From Veillonella parvula (lineage in GTDB: Bacteria; Bacillota; Negativicutes; Veillonellales; Veillonellaceae), in assembly GCA_959601155.1 (NCBI GenBank), contig CAUGOU010000003.1, positions 46,162 through 110,161 on the forward strand: a stretch of 64,000 bases of DNA, written 5' to 3'. Below are positions 20,372 through 28,440 of the stretch, in pieces. The notes under the pieces were generated by a model. The model ran no database searches, was not told the DNA's origin, and was given only the letters and a program-made list of their open reading frames with translations. The stretch's first letter is position 1; the number at the start of each line of letters is the position of its first letter. The translations under genes were made by a program, and so were the position numbers.

Positions 20372-21286
20372 TTATTTAACGTATTCGTTGTTGCCGAAGT
20401 CCAAGAGGGATAAATATTTCTCTACTCCATCAGGTGCAATAACAACGATGTTCGCCTTAGGTAACTCACGAGCCATCCGTTTTGCCGCTACAATGGCCGC
20501 CCCCGCGGAAAGGCCAATAGAAATACCACTTTCACGCATAAAGGTTTGCACCTCGCTAAAAGCTTCTTCGTCACTTACAGTTTGCACGCCATCCATCAAT
20601 GTTTGGTCAAAGTTTTCAGGAATAAACCCAGCCCCAATCCCTTGAATTTTGTGAGGGCCGCCCTTACCTTCGGTAATAGCAGGAGATCCCGTTGGCTCTA
20701 CAGCAATGGCTTTTAGATTAGGATTATGTTCTTTCAATCGTCTTGTAACGCCTGTGAAAGTACCACCCGTGCCGATACCCGCTACAAATACATCAACATT
20801 CGGCACTTGTTCTACAATTTCAGTACCCGTCGTGCGGTAATGCATATCTGGGTTTGCAGGATTTACGAATTGGCCCAAGGTGAAAGCATTTGGATACTTC
20901 TCTAAAATTTCATTGGCCCGCTCAAGAGCCCCCTTCATACCTGTTTCTTTTGGTGTTAAGATGAGCTGCGCCCCATACGCCTTAATAAGCTCACGGCGTT
21001 CTTTACTCATACTTTCAGGCATGATAATCACTGTTTTAATATGTAAAATAGCGCCTACCATAGCAAGAGCGATCCCCGTATTACCACTTGTGGCTTCTAC
21101 GATGATGCTATCCTCATGGATGCGACCTTGCTCTCTTGCAGCCTGTAACATACCGAGAACGGCACGGTCTTTTACAGAACCGCCTACATTATATTTTTCA
21201 AGTTTTACATAAATATTGGTATTTGGCAATTGATATATCGGTGTTTTACCAATAAGTTCAGTTGTTTGGTTTGTTACTATACTCAT
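20372..21286 (-). CDS. cysK: Cysteine synthase A (O-acetylserine sulfhydrylase)
   Basis: 304 aa. KLEKYNVGGSVKDR is the PLP-lysine motif; SGNTGIALA and GIGTGGTFTG are also present. Confidence 0.9.
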   Translation of the reverse strand: MSIVTNQTTELIGKTPIYQLPNTNIYVKLEKYNVGGSVKDRAVLGMLQAAREQGRIHEDSIIVEATSGNTGIALAMVGAILHIKTVIIMPESMSKERRELIKAYGAQLILTPKETGMKGALERANEILEKYPNAFTLGQFVNPANPDMHYRTTGTEIVEQVPNVDVFVAGIGTGGTFTGVTRRLKEHNPNLKAIAVEPTGSPAITEGKGGPHKIQGIGAGFIPENFDQTLMDGVQTVSDEEAFSEVQTFMRESGISIGLSAGAAIVAAKRMARELPKANIVVIAPDGVEKYLSLLDFGNNEYVK

Positions 21287-21313
21287 CTAATTCTCCCTCT
21301 AGCGATAGATGAT

Positions 21314-21350
21314 AAAAATCGTCCTTAGGAACATCCCAAGGACGATTTTA
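21314..21350 (-). terminator. Intrinsic terminator inside the cysK leader (attenuator candidate; also ends the upstream gene)
   Basis: Arms AAAATCGTCCTT (21315-21326) and AAGGACGATTTT (21338-21349). On the minus strand they are followed by TTTTTATC. It ends only 28 nt upstream of the cysK ATG. Confidence 0.6.
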
Positions 21351-21416
21351 TATTGCACCTTGTTATTCACCATATACGGAGTATAACCGTTTATGTATTC
21401 CAATTAATACAACCAT

Positions 21417-21446
21417 ACTCTAACATTTGAATCATTTCATTGTCAA
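21417..21446 (-). promoter_or_regulatory. Candidate promoter upstream of the cysK leader terminator
   Basis: Minus strand: TTGACA (21446-21441), an 18-nt spacer, then TAGAGT (21422-21417). Confidence 0.45.
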
Positions 21447-21500
21447 GAGAATGAGAACGACTTTTAAAACCCTAAAAATACAGGAAATAACTAGCTTTAT

Positions 21501-22361
21501 CTATTTTTTTGTAAGTGCGTCAAGTACCCCATCCCATGTGATGGGTACCATTATAATCATGAGGGCCAATCCAATAAAGAAAATTGCTCCTACCAAGACT
21601 GTAAGACGAGGGATAAGAGATATAGCCATGCTACTAGCTAAGTGCGATACTTTAGTTATATCATGATGTAACGCTACATGCCCCCATAAGAAACCAGCAA
21701 CTACATAGGTGATAATATATGGGTCGAAAATGATTAGGGTAGTTAATTCATTATCAACATGCATAATTCGGTTAATACTCGGAGACACTAGTACATTTAC
21801 AAGTATAGCTAGGATTTTAAACCATACTAGACACACGATATAAGGCCACATTGTTTTTATCGTCATTCTCAACATATAGAGCAAGCCCAACAAGCTCGCT
21901 CCAAGAAAGCCTCTTTGACTCCCCATGTACCGCTCCATCCAAGAAGGCTTATGTTTACCTGCATCTACTTGGTCATAATAAAAGGATAAATCCCGTTCTC
22001 CATGAGCTAAATCAACTAGCCCTAACACTTGAAACAACACAAGCGAAAAGACTAAAATAACGCCTATTTGAAAGCTTTCACTAAAGAACATATCCATCAG
22101 ATCGAAATCAAGATAACCAATGTTCAAAAGATTACCATATACATCGTGAAACGCAATATATATACCATTCGTTACGAGCACATCTAGCACAAATAGGAGC
22201 AACACAAACATGATATATCCGTTCCAGCGAGTCCATTTACTTTGTTCTCTTAAATGAGTGTGAGCCCCTACGATTATTGATGCAGGTTGTAAAGACAAGG
22301 TCACACCCATCATAAAACAAGTAATAAAGGATGCGACCATTGTTAAATATTCGTATGCCAT
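21501..22361 (-). CDS. Polytopic membrane protein of unknown family, coupled to queF
   Basis: 286 aa with about 8 hydrophobic segments. Its ATG (22361) lies 1 nt after the queF stop codon. Confidence 0.5.
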   Translation of the reverse strand: MAYEYLTMVASFITCFMMGVTLSLQPASIIVGAHTHLREQSKWTRWNGYIMFVLLLFVLDVLVTNGIYIAFHDVYGNLLNIGYLDFDLMDMFFSESFQIGVILVFSLVLFQVLGLVDLAHGERDLSFYYDQVDAGKHKPSWMERYMGSQRGFLGASLLGLLYMLRMTIKTMWPYIVCLVWFKILAILVNVLVSPSINRIMHVDNELTTLIIFDPYIITYVVAGFLWGHVALHHDITKVSHLASSMAISLIPRLTVLVGAIFFIGLALMIIMVPITWDGVLDALTKK

Positions 22362-22362
22362 A

Positions 22363-22860
22363 TTAACGGTATGCTACGCGCTCAGGCTGCATGTCGTGGA
22401 AATGAAGGCGCTCTTTTGCCGTCTTTTCCCACTCAGTACCAGGCTTGCCGTAATTTGCGTATGGATCGATGGACAAACCACCGCGCGGCGTGAACTTACC
22501 CCACACCTCGATATATTTAGGATCCATCAACTTCATAAGATCTTTCATGATGATGTTTATGCAATCCTCGTGAAAGTCCCCATGATTGCGGAAACTAAAC
22601 AGATATAACTTCAAAGACTTGGACTCTACCATTTTCTTATCTGGCACATAAGAAATATAGATTGTGGCAAAGTCTGGTTGACCTGTCATAGGACACAAAC
22701 TTGTGAACTCAGGGCAATTAAACTTAACGAAGTAATCATTGTCAGGGTGTTTATTATCAAACGCCTCCAACACCTGTGGCGCATAATCAGTAGGATAATC
22801 GGTCTTGTGACCTAACATCGTTACCCCTTGTAACTCTTTTTCAGATCTGCCAGATGCCAT
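22363..22860 (-). CDS. queF: NADPH-dependent 7-cyano-7-deazaguanine (preQ0) reductase QueF, unimodular type
   Basis: Motif [22 protein letters not shown] and catalytic-Cys region [19 protein letters not shown] at 22860 (MASGRS...) has RBS AAGAGG. The track start at 22905 adds 15 unlikely residues. Confidence 0.85.
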
Positions 22861-22914
22861 AAGGAACCTCTTTCTATAAAATATAAATTCTGCGAAATCA
22901 TTCAATATAAATAA

Positions 22915-22923
22915 ATTATATCA
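22915..22923 (-). promoter_or_regulatory. Extended -10 element (TGATATAAT) upstream of queF
   Basis: Minus-strand TGATATAAT lies about 55 nt upstream of the queF ATG. I saw no clear -35 element. Confidence 0.35.
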
Positions 22924-23012
22924 TACGTAGTGCTAAAAAAGTCCTCCTCCAGTTCTAGTTAAACAGTTAGTAGCAACTAATGCATCTAATAACATGCGCT
23001 CAAATATCAAAT

Positions 23013-23094
23013 CCACAAAAACTAAAAGGACACTATGGCTCCACCCATTCAGTAATACCGCTCACTGAAGATTAGACTATAGCGTCCTTTTTTA
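23013..23094 (-). terminator. Structured terminator after the toxin/immunity pair
   Basis: Outer stem AAAAGGACACTAT (23024-23036) with ACTATAGCGTCCTTTT (23077-23092). An inner hairpin TTCAGT...ACTGAA is enclosed. On the minus strand it is followed by TTTTAGTTTTTG. Confidence 0.6.
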
Positions 23095-23162
23095 GATTCA
23101 TATACCTTATATTAGCATTATACGTTAATCAATAGAACCTGCTATATGTACGGTCAGAATAT

Positions 23163-23504
23163 CTAATAATAGGTCAAAATATATAAATATATGTATAAAG
23201 CTACTAGAAATAACCAAACATATACGCCAGCTTTAAAGTTAAACTGATATTTTTCTACTTTATCACTTTCAAACTCATTATTTTTAAGCATAAAGTACAT
23301 TCCAACTAAAGAAATCCCCATACAAAATATCCACCAAAACAACATAGTAAATGGAGATATTAAATTACGTATGAAAAATATTCCAAACCCGAGTACTAAG
23401 CTAAAAGTATAGATAATTCGAGCTAAGCTAAGCTTACCTTTATGCGTAATAAGTTTGTATATGAGGAATATAATACCAAGTATTATAATCAGATCTTGAT
23501 ACAT
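23163..23504 (-). CDS. Small membrane protein, candidate immunity protein for the upstream toxin domain
   Basis: 113 aa with 3-4 hydrophobic helices. Its ATG overlaps the toxin stop (TAATG, 23502-23506). It is AT-rich like the toxin gene. Confidence 0.55.
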   Translation of the reverse strand: MYQDLIIILGIIFLIYKLITHKGKLSLARIIYTFSLVLGFGIFFIRNLISPFTMLFWWIFCMGISLVGMYFMLKNNEFESDKVEKYQFNFKAGVYVWLFLVALYIYLYILTYY

Positions 23505-25567
23505 TACTTATCTACATCCTTTTTCAAATTAAATTTAATTTCATCTTTAATGCGATCGCCAAATGTTGCACCAGCAACACCAACAGCAAAAGCTCCTACA
23601 GGACCAGCACCACTTCCTACAAGTCCGCCACCTAATCCAGTAGCTACAGGAATTAAATCAGCTCCCCAGGCCTTTGCTAGTTCACGCCCACTGTATACTT
23701 GATAGTCCATATATAAGTCCTTAGCTAAATAACCAATTAAAACAGGTCCTCCAGTTCGAGAAACAGTACGTGCAAATTTTGATGCCTTTTCAGCATAATG
23801 AACATATCCAACCCATGGTTGATTTCCTACTTCAGATAGCATATTTTGAGCAACAGACTTGCCTAAATCATCTTTAGTCCAAACAAATCCAGGTTTAATT
23901 ATAGTCTTAGGAGTTATATTTTCATTACGCTTAACAAAGCCTAATTTCTCTCTATCCAACGGAGTAAGATTTTTGTCATAATATCGTCTAATTCCTATCG
24001 ATTTAAATATAGAGCTTCGTCCATTATGTGGTAACCCAAAAGTTTTAAATGATGATTTATAATCTCTATACCCATTTTCATTACGATCTAAGGTTGGTAA
24101 ATTACCCATTTTAAAATAATACCCATGCCGTGCAAACAAAGCTCTTACAGCATTATAATACTCTGATACCTTACTAGGATTATTAACACCGACTTCATCC
24201 TTAATTATTTTATTGTGTAATACATACATCTCATTAAGAATTTCACGAGCTTGTTGAAAATAAATTTCTTTCCACTTTGCGTCTATTGCTTCGCGCTCTT
24301 CATTACTTTTTGCTTTTGAATATTCCTGTTTATATAATTTTATTTGCTCATGTGTCAAATAATTATTCTGTGTAGCAGATAATGAAATACCAGAACCCAA
24401 TGAAGAGTATGAAACTGTATTACCTAATATTGCACTAGCAATTTTATATACATCAGAATTATCAACATACTTACCATTAGCGTCTACCGTACTATTAGGA
24501 TGTTTAGCTAATTCTTTAGCAATAGCTCCTACCATCACCTCATTAGCACTAGATACTGTAAACCCTTCTAAGCTAGAGCCTCCAGCCATATTAGAGACTA
24601 CTGCACCGAAACCGCCATGTAAGGCAACTTTATAAATACCGCCATCTTTCCATTTATCAGCTTCTTTTTGGTATCGTTTTTTTAGAGCTTCATCAGTAGT
24701 AGTGGCGGCTTTTTCTTCATACTTCTGAGCTTGCTTCATGGCTATATCCCCAATTAATTTAAAACCTTCATCAGATACAGCATTAACGTATTCCATACGC
24801 TCTTTTACATCAGCCTTATCAAATATTGGTTTAATACTATTGAGTGCGTCTTCAGTATCTCTGTTAATAGTAGTAAGAGGTTTACCCTCTACTTCTACTA
24901 ATATAGTATCACTAATAGCAGATTTCGTGGTAGATTGGGCCTCATCTGATACAGGAATAGAGACTACTGGAGATAGCCCTAACGGGTTGATTTTACCGAG
25001 AATACCTTTTGCTGTCAATCCAGATGTATTCATGGCTAAACCAGATTTCTTAGCCTTATAAGATGCTTCATTATGAAGGTCTTCCATAACTAGAGATTTG
25101 GTAGATAGCTTATTTTTTTCAGGTGTAGCCTTACTAGTTATAGTAGCACCTTTTAATGTTGTCGTATTGCCAACAGTAATATTTACACCATCATTACCTG
25201 CATAAATACCAGATTGATCTGTAACACTTTTATAAGTACTATCAATATTACCTTTTACATTAACACCATTAATCGTAGGTTGAGATATAAAGTTTGCGCC
25301 AGAGATAGAAATACCCTTGTTCTTAGATGTTTCATGATAGATTCGACTGTCTTGCAAGCTCTCTACAGTCAGATTATTACCTACTTTCGCCGTTACACCT
25401 CGTCCAGAGATAGTAGAACCGATAAGGTTAGTATCATTGCCACTTTCGATAGATACGTTATTAGTACCTACAACATGTGTCCCTGTATGAGTAGTAGTAT
25501 CTTCTATGCCATTTTCTGACCCTTTATAAGCGGATGCCGACCAGCCTACGAGCCCACCAGTTCTCAT
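23504..25567 (-). CDS. 5'-truncated filamentous-haemagglutinin / CdiA-type exoprotein fragment: repeats, pre-toxin region, TQNN boundary and a novel C-terminal domain. The open frame actually extends to 25774
   Basis: FHA-type repeats (VTAKVGNNLTVESLQDS, GVNITVGNTTTLKGATITS). Conserved pre-toxin segments (DLHNEASYKAKKSG, RDTEDALNSIKPIFDKADVKERMEY, ALHGGFGAVVSNMAGG). VENN-like TQNN at 24362-24373. C-terminal glycine zipper ATGLGGGLVGSGAGPVGAFAVGVAGATFG. I found no signal peptide, TPS domain or RBS. Confidence 0.7.
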   Translation of the reverse strand: MRTGGLVGWSASAYKGSENGIEDTTTHTGTHVVGTNNVSIESGNDTNLIGSTISGRGVTAKVGNNLTVESLQDSRIYHETSKNKGISISGANFISQPTINGVNVKGNIDSTYKSVTDQSGIYAGNDGVNITVGNTTTLKGATITSKATPEKNKLSTKSLVMEDLHNEASYKAKKSGLAMNTSGLTAKGILGKINPLGLSPVVSIPVSDEAQSTTKSAISDTILVEVEGKPLTTINRDTEDALNSIKPIFDKADVKERMEYVNAVSDEGFKLIGDIAMKQAQKYEEKAATTTDEALKKRYQKEADKWKDGGIYKVALHGGFGAVVSNMAGGSSLEGFTVSSANEVMVGAIAKELAKHPNSTVDANGKYVDNSDVYKIASAILGNTVSYSSLGSGISLSATQNNYLTHEQIKLYKQEYSKAKSNEEREAIDAKWKEIYFQQAREILNEMYVLHNKIIKDEVGVNNPSKVSEYYNAVRALFARHGYYFKMGNLPTLDRNENGYRDYKSSFKTFGLPHNGRSSIFKSIGIRRYYDKNLTPLDREKLGFVKRNENITPKTIIKPGFVWTKDDLGKSVAQNMLSEVGNQPWVGYVHYAEKASKFARTVSRTGGPVLIGYLAKDLYMDYQVYSGRELAKAWGADLIPVATGLGGGLVGSGAGPVGAFAVGVAGATFGDRIKDEIKFNLKKDVDK

Positions 25568-25914
25568 ACCAATATTAGCAGAGACATTCCAGCCACTAGA
25601 CTTACTATTTGTTTCAATACGTTGCGTATTTGAACCTGCCTCTAGATTGATAGTATTGGAAGCAGCTAATTGTACATTCTTCCCTTTGATTTGCTCTCCA
25701 ATTGCAGTAATATTACCTTTAATTGAATCTGCACTATTAGCATGAAGTAAAATAGTTCCATCAGAATAGCATAATTAAAGTTTTGTTGTAAAGTATAAAT
25801 ATATTTCTTCTTTTTAGTTTTATAAAATTAAAATTTATAATATAATATTCATATATCCATGTTATAGTACCCATTATGATTTATCGTTACGTTTTATACA
25901 CAATGGAGGTTACC

Positions 25915-26646
25915 ATGAAATTAAAACAACTGATTTTGTCCGGTATAGCCGTTGGAGCGCTAGCTTTCACAAGCGGAATGGTACAGCCTGCACAGGCAGC
26001 AGTCGGTATGGATACGCCTGCACCGACGCAAAGTTTAAAGAGACCTGCATCAGTAACGACACAGCATTATATCAATGTAGATGGCATATTATTAGAGCCC
26101 ATAGATAATAAACCAAATGTTATCTATGTTGACGGTCAGCCACTCGTAGCGTTACGTCAAGTATCAGAAGCATTAGGTTATAAAGTATCTTGGGATACCC
26201 CTACAAAAACGGCATTAATCGATATGAACATTGCTACCTTAGCGGTACAACCAGACTCTAAACAAGTCGTGCGCAAAGGTAAACTGCAAATCATCAACCT
26301 TGATACATCCGAATCTTTACTCCCTGCAGCACGTATGGTAGACGGAATTCTATATGTAAGTCCGAACGCATTCAAACTCTTGTTAAATGATGTAACCATC
26401 AATAAAGACGAAATATATATCGTTCCACAACAAAGTCAATTGGCCACTGATTCAAACACGCAAAAAGGCAAACGAAACGGTATCGAAACATTTTTACCGG
26501 ATCAAGGAGATAAAGTAATTCCATACGAAGAAAAGGAAACCAAAGAAAAGAAACCTCTTATTACGGTAAAACGAACTAACACCAAAACAGATACCAAAGA
26601 CACAGAAAATACCGAATATGTACGCTCTAACGGATTAAACAGATAA
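25915..26646 (+). CDS. Secreted protein with a copper-amine-oxidase N-terminal (stalk-like) domain and a K/T/E-rich tail
   Basis: RBS GGAGG (25905-25909) then ATG at 25915. Signal peptide MKLKQLILSGIAVGALAFTSGMVQPAQA. VDGQPLVALRQVSEALGYKVSWDTPTKTALI is typical of the Cu_amine_oxidN1 fold. Confidence 0.55.
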   Translation: MKLKQLILSGIAVGALAFTSGMVQPAQAAVGMDTPAPTQSLKRPASVTTQHYINVDGILLEPIDNKPNVIYVDGQPLVALRQVSEALGYKVSWDTPTKTALIDMNIATLAVQPDSKQVVRKGKLQIINLDTSESLLPAARMVDGILYVSPNAFKLLLNDVTINKDEIYIVPQQSQLATDSNTQKGKRNGIETFLPDQGDKVIPYEEKETKEKKPLITVKRTNTKTDTKDTENTEYVRSNGLNR

Positions 26647-26691
26647 TAAAATCTTTCGTATAGCTATATATAATTTAGCACCTTATAACTT

Positions 26692-26733
26692 AAAGAAGGC
26701 AACTCATCACCATGATGGATTGCCTTCTTTTTA
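26692..26733. terminator. Bidirectional terminator hairpin
   Basis: Arms AAAGAAGGCAA (26692-26702) and TTGCCTTCTTT (26720-26730) with a T-run after. It lies between convergent genes. Confidence 0.6.
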
Positions 26734-26814
26734 TAATATTTGCTAGTTTATTATTTTTGTTACTTTATATTATTACTTTATTGTTTCTTCTTACCCTTTA
26801 CGGCTCAATACAGT

Positions 26815-28440
26815 TTATTGCTTACTGTTTTTTGACAGATTATCTAAGCTATCTTTTGCCGTATCCATACTCCGCTTCAGATCCTTCATGGATTCTTTCA
26901 TGTCCGGCGCTATAAGCCCAGATTTGTCGATGCCCTTTGCAGAGTCAGAGGCACGTCTACTATTTTCCCTGGCTTGTTTCATATCGTCTTTAATGCGAGT
27001 CATATTTTCATCAATTTCGTCAAATGACTCATCATACAAAATAAAATTACTGCCCCCGTGGGACGTAATATTTAGCGGCCCCATCGTGAGCTGTCCATCA
27101 TCGATACGCAAAGCATCCGTAGTAATAGTAGTGATTTTCGTATGTACGTTCACATCGCTAAAGGATAAATGCCGTCCTTTATTGTGAAAGTTTCCCGTAA
27201 TGCTTTGAATCGGAATTAGCATATAGTGCCCTTCACCAGACCAGAAGTTACCCCATACCTCCATGTCTCGAGGTTGGCCTTCACTTTTAAAGTTCAAATT
27301 TGCCGATACGGGCACGAGAAACTCAGGAGCCTTGAGGGCTACACTGCTATCTAAATCCTTTGCTACGCCTGTAATCGTATAGGCTCGAGTGTCCAAATTA
27401 TATACACCTTTAGCCTCCAATTTACCGCTGTATACATTGGCACTAACGTTTTCAAAATTTAAAATACCATCTTGGTACGTCACATCTCCTACTACATTCT
27501 CAAAAGTAAGTGCAGGAATGCGTAAAATAGGCATCGTCACACGACCTTTAGCTAAGGGACGATTAAAATCACCTGTTACCTTTGTAAGCAAGGTCATAGC
27601 ATCATGAATATTCTCACCAAAGCCTAGTGATGATGGATCCACCCCTTTCACATCAAATTGTAGATCCAGTTGAGGCATGCGATGCTTTAAAACATCCTTT
27701 AAATCTACACGACCTTTTAATACGAGACCATCCCCTATGGCGGTACCACCAAATTTGCCCGTCTCCATATCGATACGAATCGCTCGCTTACTATCAAGAT
27801 CAATTTTTGAGTTTACATTCTTTATCACATAATGGCGATTTCTATTAAAAACCTCTAACTGACTATTTCTAAGTGTAATCTTAAGATCTAAATGTTGACC
27901 TTGCCAATTAAAGTTACGTACTTTCTTACCTAGTTCCTCTTGCCGTTCTTGTGTGGTCTTTTTAGGTGCTTTTGGACGAGGCTCTACCTCATTAATTGGT
28001 TTATTTACATCTGGAGATATGGGCGCGAAATCCAACCGATTATTATCGTCCAAATCAATGACTATAACCGCATCATCTAATTCAATGCCCTTGATAGCGG
28101 AGGACTTAAAATTACGTGTCACCACATCCCACATATTGACGCGGACTTTCCCACTTGGTGCATTGAGCAACTCATGCCCTTCTGGGTCCTTCCAAACAAG
28201 GCCTGTAAAAGTCAAAGTTCCCCATGGTGTAGCAGATAAACTTTCAACAGTAACCGTACCGCGCATCATAGTTTGTCGAGCCATAACCTCATTAAAAATA
28301 ACGCCCATTCCACGACTAGCAATGGTTGCTAGTACAAAGACTATAATCGCTCCAATGGCAAGAAAGGCAGCAATGCCTTTTAGGCCTTTCTTATACAATT
28401 GTTTATATTTTGTCCAATAAGAACGTATATAATGTTTCAT
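26815..28440 (-). CDS. N-terminally anchored envelope protein, AsmA/TamB-like (tentative)
   Basis: 541 aa with a single N-terminal TM (GIAAFLAIGAIIVFVLATIA). A long beta-rich region then follows, beginning GTVTVESLSATPWGTLTFTGLVWKDPEG as in AsmA-like proteins. The C-terminal tail is charged. Confidence 0.4.
   Translation of the reverse strand: MKHYIRSYWTKYKQLYKKGLKGIAAFLAIGAIIVFVLATIASRGMGVIFNEVMARQTMMRGTVTVESLSATPWGTLTFTGLVWKDPEGHELLNAPSGKVRVNMWDVVTRNFKSSAIKGIELDDAVIVIDLDDNNRLDFAPISPDVNKPINEVEPRPKAPKKTTQERQEELGKKVRNFNWQGQHLDLKITLRNSQLEVFNRNRHYVIKNVNSKIDLDSKRAIRIDMETGKFGGTAIGDGLVLKGRVDLKDVLKHRMPQLDLQFDVKGVDPSSLGFGENIHDAMTLLTKVTGDFNRPLAKGRVTMPILRIPALTFENVVGDVTYQDGILNFENVSANVYSGKLEAKGVYNLDTRAYTITGVAKDLDSSVALKAPEFLVPVSANLNFKSEGQPRDMEVWGNFWSGEGHYMLIPIQSITGNFHNKGRHLSFSDVNVHTKITTITTDALRIDDGQLTMGPLNITSHGGSNFILYDESFDEIDENMTRIKDDMKQARENSRRASDSAKGIDKSGLIAPDMKESMKDLKRSMDTAKDSLDNLSKNSKQ

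Follow-up and report, generated by a model that had tools for sequence, protein, structure and literature searches.

The 64-kb stretch of Veillonella parvula DNA analysed here (contig CAUGOU010000003.1; 'the window', from whose first letter all window coordinates below are counted) contains on its reverse strand a 687-aa open reading frame (ORF) with a haemagglutinin-type repeat and an unannotated C-terminal region (CT), followed directly by a 113-aa ORF encoding a hydrophobic protein. This locus is fairly likely to be an orphan module of the CdiA-CT/CdiI type, derived from a Veillonella polymorphic toxin system of the two-partner secretion (TPS) kind (type Vb secretion system, T5bSS), complete versions of which would form a membrane-leaking toxin together with a membrane immunity protein. 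The reading draws on the architecture of the locus, its truncation, the family distribution, the pairing of the two genes, their co-variation and a predicted helical bundle, all obtained by computation. Polymorphic toxins of type V secretion systems have already been noted in Veillonella and Selenomonas, both Negativicutes (Zhang et al. 2012, PMC3482391); the literature searched contained no description of this toxin domain, or of contact-dependent growth inhibition (CDI) in Veillonella. The module consists of the following elements.

23504–25567, reverse strand: 687-aa ORF, an orphan fragment of a TpsA/CdiA-like exoprotein (Fil_haemagg_2 repeat, pre-toxin region, then CT)
24362–24373, reverse strand: TQNN, a VENN-like boundary motif (aa 399–402)
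23900–24361, reverse strand: variable N-terminal sub-domain of the CT (aa 403–556), one of at least three unrelated variants
23507–23899, reverse strand: conserved 131-aa candidate toxin domain (aa 557–687), a predicted five-helix bundle with the family motifs
23558–23644, reverse strand: glycine zipper (aa 642–670), running from the last part of helix 4 through a GSGAGP turn into the first part of helix 5
23163–23504, reverse strand: candidate immunity gene (113 aa), with four hydrophobic segments and a TAATG overlap with the toxin stop codon

A modular C-terminus with a glycine zipper

The Fil_haemagg_2 repeat at aa 5–83 is the only above-threshold match of the 687-aa ORF in Pfam, NCBIfam and PDB sequence searches. 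The CT that follows the TQNN motif (residues 403–687, 285 aa; window 23507–24361), the zipper alone and the 113-aa ORF gave no match above threshold in these searches. A preliminary description of the locus, made from the bare sequence, had called the region after TQNN unassignable and had reported a glycine zipper in it; both statements are borne out. Pfam returned no family for the conserved domain at E ≤ 1, and no match to PT-VENN at the boundary. A Pfam scan of 28 aligned family members gave matches of the glycine-zipper type only (PF13488, PF13441 and PF05433), sub-threshold and in 1–4 of the 28, and these families were set aside.

The zipper string, ATGLGGGLVGSGAGPVGAFAVGVAGATFG, occupies residues 642–670. 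It has 11 glycines in 29 residues, against 10% glycine across the whole 687-aa protein, and its spacing provides four GxxxG and 11 small-xxx-small repeats. Among 39 Veillonella homologues its Gly and Pro residues show little or no variation, and the Gly-rich hairpin is retained in relatives from other genera at 25–40% identity; the zipper is therefore no chance run of small residues.

All homologues found in an index of 5.8 billion proteins are Veillonella sequences of at most 500 aa, and most of them align only to residues ~538–687 of the ORF. In the alignment, the conserved domain extends from FVWTK (residue 561) to the stop codon, and at least three unrelated N-terminal sub-domains precede this one conserved domain of 127–131 aa. 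The pre-toxin motifs before it are also of two kinds, TQNNYLTHEQ and AQYGTKWNQL; the boundary motif of protein P0207 is VDNNWLTH, that of Veillonella TQNNYLTHEQ. This modularity of the alignments defines residues 403–556 as a swappable sub-domain, a candidate membrane-entry domain, and residues 557–687 as the conserved toxin domain. An earlier proposal had seen a possible receptor or translocation domain of a new type in all of the ~230 residues that precede the zipper. These residues do not form one such domain: only residues 403–556 are variable and swappable, and the 70–85 residues immediately before the zipper (helices 1–3) belong to the conserved toxin domain. A separate case is P0007 (471 aa, from a Joint Genome Institute metagenome), where the equivalent of aa 508–687 of the window ORF is fused to an unrelated N-terminal region that has a PF20693 match and is not a haemagglutinin; this protein is either a true recombinant or a chimera created during assembly.

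A profile of the 131-aa domain, run against 1.84 billion cluster representatives (cut-off E ≤ 1e-3), found 52 proteins, all of them short fragments or C-termini of TPS/Fil_haemagg_2 proteins; a profile search with an alignment of the remote members only found eight. The distant members (25–40% identity) are C-termini of Fil_haemagg_2 proteins, one of them a complete 2027-aa TpsA with its TPS domain, and those named by their sources come from Selenomonas artemidis and Megasphaera cerevisiae (Negativicutes). The motifs shared by the family are S..N..SE..N.P, K.GG..G, D...D[YW]..YSG..L..AWG.DLIP and GD..K..IK..IPTD.E, together with a Gly-rich hairpin whose length varies. Ser, Asp, Tyr and Asn are conserved in the family alignment; conserved His, Cys or Glu residues are absent from it. 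By analogy with known toxins of the CDI type, this is probably an unnamed, membrane-depolarising toxin family restricted to the Negativicutes (Veillonella, Selenomonas and Megasphaera).

AlphaFold2 modelling of the 131-aa domain with its remote homologues, based on 28 sequences only, gives a five-helix bundle with a predicted local distance difference test score (pLDDT) of 81 and a predicted template modelling score of 0.72. The helices comprise ORF residues 565–591, 597–604, 607–624, 627–654 and 656–679. The whole 285-aa CT, modelled with Veillonella sequences only, gives a poor model (pLDDT 41.6), in which only three N-terminal helices within the first ~80 aa come near a pLDDT of ~70, a moderate confidence. 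A Foldseek comparison with the PDB found no fold match for the bundle, the best hits being generic helical bundles (best E 0.63, TM-score below 0.45). The predicted domain is all-helical, contains a zipper hairpin and matches no cytoplasmic enzyme fold in the PDB, in line with the membrane-active effector first suggested for this locus.

The membrane partner and its pairing with the toxin

The first base of the 113-aa ORF is also the last of the toxin stop codon (TAATG), a one-base overlap, and the four hydrophobic segments of the ORF product agree with the coupled multi-transmembrane ORF of the preliminary description. The protein has 151 homologues, nearly all of 113–114 aa; those with a named source are from Veillonella. 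Pairing was assessed in 80 metagenome loci, 65 of which contain an intact toxin ORF; 56 of the 65 have enough downstream sequence. An immunity homologue starting at −1 is present in every one of these 56 loci (54 intact, two with a single in-frame stop), so that the small ORF is conserved with the CT elsewhere, as had been anticipated. In 22 metagenome loci the toxin ORF extends to the edge of the 3-kb flank and is therefore part of a long exoprotein. In the remote relatives the toxin domain is followed directly by ORFs of 109, 138, 138, 146 and 147 aa, each with four hydrophobic segments and without detectable similarity to the Veillonella immunity protein. A BLASTP comparison of the 113-aa protein with the 147-aa Selenomonas partner likewise found no similarity; only position and topology are common across genera.

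The two proteins co-vary in a specific part of the toxin domain. Among 39 unique Veillonella pairs, which are related metagenome sequences and not fully independent, immunity identity tracks helices 4–5 (Mantel r 0.64, p 5e-4) and shows no correlation with helices 1–3 (Mantel r 0.04, p 0.11). Helices 1–3 that are at least 95% identical occur with immunity proteins less than 70% identical in 45 comparisons; no comparison combines helices 4–5 that are at least 95% identical with immunity proteins less than 85% identical. Within the toxin domain, the zipper varies most, and it is also the part that co-varies with the immunity protein. Co-variation with the zipper hairpin and pairing in 56 of 56 loci support the earlier suggestion of a polymorphic toxin CT with a membrane immunity partner. 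The four-segment membrane protein would thus be the cognate immunity protein, probably binding the zipper hairpin within the membrane.

Eleven loci share a frameshift inside the zipper and still have an intact immunity gene (L080 and L088–L097, with V. parvula-type 390-aa proteins P0043–P0064, whose altered end reads ...GPVGFLLLVLLERHLGIIIRIESNLI). A frameshifted zipper with an intact immunity gene is the usual decay pattern of orphan modules. The frameshift itself recurs in many independent assemblies, as a fixed pseudogene or at a slippage-prone site.

Truncation, exchange and complete relatives

The open frame continues upstream of the first ATG of the 687-aa ORF (ATG 25567) for 69 in-frame haemagglutinin-repeat codons without a start codon, up to an in-frame stop codon at 25775–25777; the toxin gene is therefore truncated at its 5′ end. 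The edges of the module are marked by three elements. L003, named in the second line, is a syntenic locus of an uncultured Veillonella.

25568–25774, reverse strand: 69 in-frame haemagglutinin-repeat codons upstream of the first ATG, without ATG, GTG or TTG
25768–25818, reverse strand: deletion junction, ~50 nt unique to the window allele, in place of the ribosome-binding site, start codon and first ~1.5 kb seen in L003; the in-frame stop codon at 25775–25777 lies within it
23014–23091, reverse strand: long hairpin with a U-rich run, terminator-like, closing the module; this DNA is also conserved 3′ of the Veillonella caviae pair

Neither a signal peptide nor a TPS domain was found in the 687-aa ORF, and no TpsB or TPS-domain gene was found among the larger ORFs scanned in the window. 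Start-less, without signal peptide and TPS domain, and with no partner TpsB within 64 kb, the toxin is therefore not deployable from the window copy. The 687-aa ORF is TpsA/CdiA-like; as it stands in the window, however, it is a 5′-truncated fragment that is not exportable. Most probably, the locus acts as an immunity gene that has been kept and as a reservoir from which a full-length gene elsewhere can recombine.

In L003, as in the window, a 541-aa and a Cu_amine_oxidN1 gene form one flank and queF and a 286-aa gene the other. Between these flanks L003 has three ORF pairs: a repeat ORF of 1382 aa whose partner has 157 aa, and two orphan ORFs, of 466 and 261 aa, each with a 113-aa partner. 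Compared with L003, ~1.5 kb of 5′ sequence of the first gene is missing from the window; this ORF of L003, the syntenic 'parent' of the window gene, itself has no TPS domain. The two genes are 94% identical up to 24342 and unrelated beyond it. This break lies six to seven codons past TQNN (TQNNYLTHEQ), where the window continues with the CT of an orphan module. From the zipper through the immunity gene, the window has 98–100% DNA identity to L001, L002 and L003, between genomes that differ by 10–35% in their flanking genes, and identity to the other L003 module collapses exactly at the zipper. This pattern identifies the zipper hairpin plus the immunity gene as the exchangeable unit, and the near-identity suggests recent exchange or selection.

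Tandem arrays of modules occur in sister genomes (L003, L007, L010 and L013). Parts of these arrays consist of tandem exoprotein fragments with other, unrelated CTs (L003 2510–7286; L013 5593–8143; L010 1–2835 and 6275–7805). The small partner ORFs in these arrays have 157, 130, 194 and 196 aa and no Pfam match, and the arrays represent further unannotated toxin/immunity families in Negativicutes.

Complete systems are present among the relatives. A search of genome contigs with one protein returned six loci. In V. caviae DSM 20738 (L004) a ShlB-type TpsB is accompanied by a TPS-domain ORF, an 1825-aa repeat ORF ending in the CT and a 113-aa ORF. Selenomonas-like L007 contains TpsB, a 2027-aa TpsA ending in a 25–30%-identical toxin domain and a 147-aa four-segment ORF; an orphan copy with a 146-aa paralogue of the 147-aa ORF follows the full pair. 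The toxin/immunity pair thus occurs on full-length exoproteins of other Negativicutes, in TpsB/TpsA operons of V. caviae and Selenomonas. A TpsB-adjacent TPS/haemagglutinin-repeat context is found in L004 and in Selenomonas-like L007/L008, but not around the window copy. In L004 (3401–10456) the exoprotein is split into a 481-aa TPS-domain ORF and the 1825-aa repeat ORF, ~130 nt apart, and L008/L009 are split likewise; the split is a broken gene, a sequencing error or a true two-ORF arrangement.

Truncation raises the alternative that the whole window locus is an inert relic with both the truncated toxin ORF and the small ORF unexpressed and not under selection. No start codon for the full toxin frame is present in the window and no Shine–Dalgarno-like sequence was found before ATG 25567; the relic reading also agrees with the lack of a TPS domain and of TpsB within 64 kb, and with promoter-like sites no commoner than chance (15 in the scan against 14.5 expected). 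However, the identical 687-aa product is indexed in 162 blocks of a public assembly collection, and the contigs read with it have the same synteny and the adjoining 113-aa gene. This marks the locus as an allele fixed in a common lineage, and as no artefact of assembly. Elsewhere the immunity ORF has stayed intact despite a frameshifted toxin, the DNA of the zipper and immunity gene is almost identical where flanking genes have diverged, and orphan modules are a known functional reservoir in CDI systems. An inert relic is accordingly considered unlikely, and the reading of the locus as an orphan toxin/immunity module is preferred.

The orphan stands alone among housekeeping genes (cstA ... queF, cysK), and the full-length gene is absent from the window. 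The larger window ORFs are of the housekeeping type (EF-G, CstA, HisZ/HisG, ATP-binding cassette transporters, PrpD, QueF and CysK) or have no Pfam match. Rfam gave no match across 21000–27000. The hairpin at 23014–23091, directly 3′ of the immunity gene, has a 13-bp outer stem and an inner stem, followed by UUUUAGUUUUU; a simple terminator scan gave no signal above chance and did not detect it. Two neighbouring genes deserve mention. The 286-aa ORF at 21501–22361 (reverse strand), which adjoins queF, encodes a multi-pass membrane protein with no Pfam match. It is hypervariable, with 64–80% DNA identity to L001–L003 against 86–98% for its neighbours, and lies two genes downstream of the toxin/immunity module, with queF in between. 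On the other side, the 541-aa ORF at 26815–28440 (reverse strand) has an N-terminal membrane segment and no Pfam match, and its position is conserved in L003, L021 and L022.

Candidate mechanism, alternatives and known systems

In complete systems, such as those of V. caviae L004 and Selenomonas L007, TpsB would export and display the long haemagglutinin-repeat exoprotein, and everything after the TQNN(YLTHEQ) boundary would act as a swappable toxic tip in two parts. The CT would be delivered into the periplasm of the target. There, the helix 4–helix 5 zipper hairpin would insert into the membrane, aided by the variable sub-domain of ~155 aa, which may help the toxin to reach or enter the target cytoplasmic membrane. 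Ions would leak and the membrane potential would collapse; the four-segment immunity protein, where its gene is expressed, would neutralise the zipper hairpin within the membrane. Membrane permeabilisation is proposed here by analogy with the CDI ionophores of E. coli, which depolarise their targets; they join an entry domain that varies to a zipper-containing bundle of five helices and are paired with a hydrophobic CdiI of the membrane (Halvorsen et al. 2024, PMC11630599). The entry domains make use of particular proteins of the inner membrane; the CdiI proteins of these ionophores are two-helix membrane hairpins of 72–100 aa, and their zipper, GxxxGxxxG, lies in helix 4 (PMC11630599).

Several points weigh against this proposal. 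The hydrophobic stretch of the toxin domain (LIPVATGL...ATFG) has only ~33 residues, and neither hairpin arm reaches the length of a typical helix that spans the bilayer; because the stretch is so short, a re-entrant or oligomeric membrane arrangement is likely. The CdiA-CT of EC93 was recovered from plasmid pCP127, together with four relatives (the CdiI proteins of this set have 79–92 aa), and the family alignment was compared with these five EC93-type ionophore domains using hhalign, which gave a probability of 33% and E 4.5e-4 over 70 Gly/Ala-rich columns. The immunity protein of 113 aa (109–147 aa in relatives) has four hydrophobic segments, as against two in the CdiI proteins of 72–100 aa. 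To these are added the poor model of the whole CT, the small alignment behind the 131-aa model, the relatedness of the 39 co-varying pairs and, for the window copy, the lack of a start codon, of a Shine–Dalgarno-like sequence and of promoter-like sites above chance.

The shortness of the hairpin arms also fits a domain that reaches the membrane without conducting ions and kills by blocking an essential inner-membrane protein or lipid carrier (translocon, transporter or lipid II), the immunity protein competing for the helix 4–5 surface. The strictly conserved D...D[YW]..YSG motif and helices 1–3 vary little and do not co-vary with immunity, as would be expected of a surface in contact with a conserved target, and the E. 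coli ionophores depend on specific membrane proteins (PMC11630599). Nevertheless, no candidate target is known, and known CDI toxins with the same architecture and a membrane immunity protein depolarise cells. Glycine zippers, moreover, are typical of channel-forming helix packing. A non-conducting toxin therefore seems improbable, somewhat more so than an inert relic.

An enzymatic conserved domain (for example, a lipid- or cell-wall-directed hydrolase), with the zipper merely as membrane anchor, would agree with the conserved Ser, Asp, Tyr and Asn and with the lack of positive annotation of any kind. It is very unlikely, however, since the modelled 131-aa all-helical bundle has no enzyme match in the PDB, no His, Cys or Glu is conserved, the variable part linked to immunity is the zipper and not a putative active site, and the immunity protein is an integral membrane protein and not a soluble inhibitor. 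That there is no toxin pair at all, the C-terminus serving to build or anchor an adhesin and the small ORF encoding an unrelated membrane protein, is hardly credible: a position after a VENN-like motif, orphans arrayed in tandem, swapped cassettes, a partner gene that overlaps by one base in 56 of 56 loci, and co-variation are hallmarks of polymorphic toxin/immunity systems.

Veillonella is among the most abundant genera of the human oral cavity and the infant gut, and its contact-dependent weapons are essentially uncharacterised. The toxin domain and immunity gene are very common in human metagenomes yet have no database name. For annotation, such pairs of 'hypothetical proteins' are to be read as orphan toxin/immunity modules. 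If the toxin is an ionophore, it would extend the CDI ionophore strategy from Proteobacteria to diderm Firmicutes and would offer a compact collection of naturally diverse zipper/immunity pairs in which specificity within the membrane can be studied. The module, unsurprising in principle, concerns specialists in bacterial competition and annotators of oral and gut commensals.

Glycine-zipper membrane toxins are also represented by Tse5-CT, the LXG toxin TelE and CdzC/CdzD, with which the Veillonella domain has in common a Gly-rich GxxxG hairpin presumed to be membrane-active, a general resemblance. Their delivery differs from two-partner secretion: Tse5, TelE and Cdz use the type VI, type VII and type I secretion systems, respectively. 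The window domain has no above-threshold match and no PDB fold match to the colicin pore-forming domain, Tox-WTIP or the Pfam glycine-zipper families. Tox-WTIP, considered for its W...IP motif, is the only pore-forming domain listed by Zhang et al. (2012, PMC3482391); it has RxxR and Wx[ST]IP motifs, occurs in Proteobacteria and is delivered by the type II secretion system or Photorhabdus virulence cassettes (PVC). Like the Veillonella domain, the two-helix Tox-WTIP is a small, non-enzymatic, hydrophobic C-terminal toxin in which a Trp is conserved and an IP dipeptide lies close to membrane helices. The Veillonella motif, however, is AWGxDLIP, with different spacing, no RxxR and three extra helices. 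The motif spacing, together with the lack of any Pfam match, ruled Tox-WTIP out.

Orphan cdiA-CT/cdiI modules occur downstream of CDI loci. Standalone toxin cassettes have been described as well (Zhang et al. 2012, PMC3482391). The window locus resembles the orphan modules in that an intact immunity gene follows a toxin fragment that has lost its 5′ end but retains pre-toxin homology on which recombination can act; the tandem arrays of the sister genomes and decay of the toxin with retention of the immunity gene are further common features. Unlike them, the window orphan stands alone, with no full-length gene or TpsB in 64 kb.

The closest parallel is with the EC93-type ionophores. As in these, the domain is the toxic tip of a TpsA/CdiA exoprotein after an xxNN boundary motif; the CT is bipartite, with a variable N-terminal part (at least three variants here) and a conserved C-terminal part; the C-terminal domain is predicted to fold as a bundle of five helices that carries a glycine zipper; and the gene directly downstream codes for a small, hydrophobic immunity protein of the membrane. 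Variation of the toxin is likewise concentrated where the immunity protein would be expected to bind, and orphan copies exist. The differences lie in the boundary motif (TQNN or TKWNY, as against VENN), in the zipper, which spans the helix 4–helix 5 hairpin and not helix 4 alone, in the larger, four-segment immunity protein and in the hosts, here diderm Firmicutes. It is possible, if doubtful, that the 131-aa domain arose independently in evolution, as a membrane-active toxin family of diderm Firmicutes and not as a diverged EC93 relative, its specificity being set entirely by the exchangeable cassette of zipper hairpin and four-segment immunity protein that moves between Veillonella species at nearly 100% DNA identity. 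If so, it would provide a compact natural system for intramembrane helix–helix recognition and for warfare between strains of a dominant commensal of mouth and gut. A bipartite CT with a zipper-containing helical bundle and a membrane immunity protein had already been described for CDI ionophores in 2024, and the 'new type' of the preliminary description is too strong for the mechanism. Because of the hhalign probability of 33% and the immunity topology of four segments as against two, the Veillonella toxin is not assigned to the EC93 family; by analogy it would work most like the EC93 type and would belong to the wider CdiA-CT/CdiI-type class.

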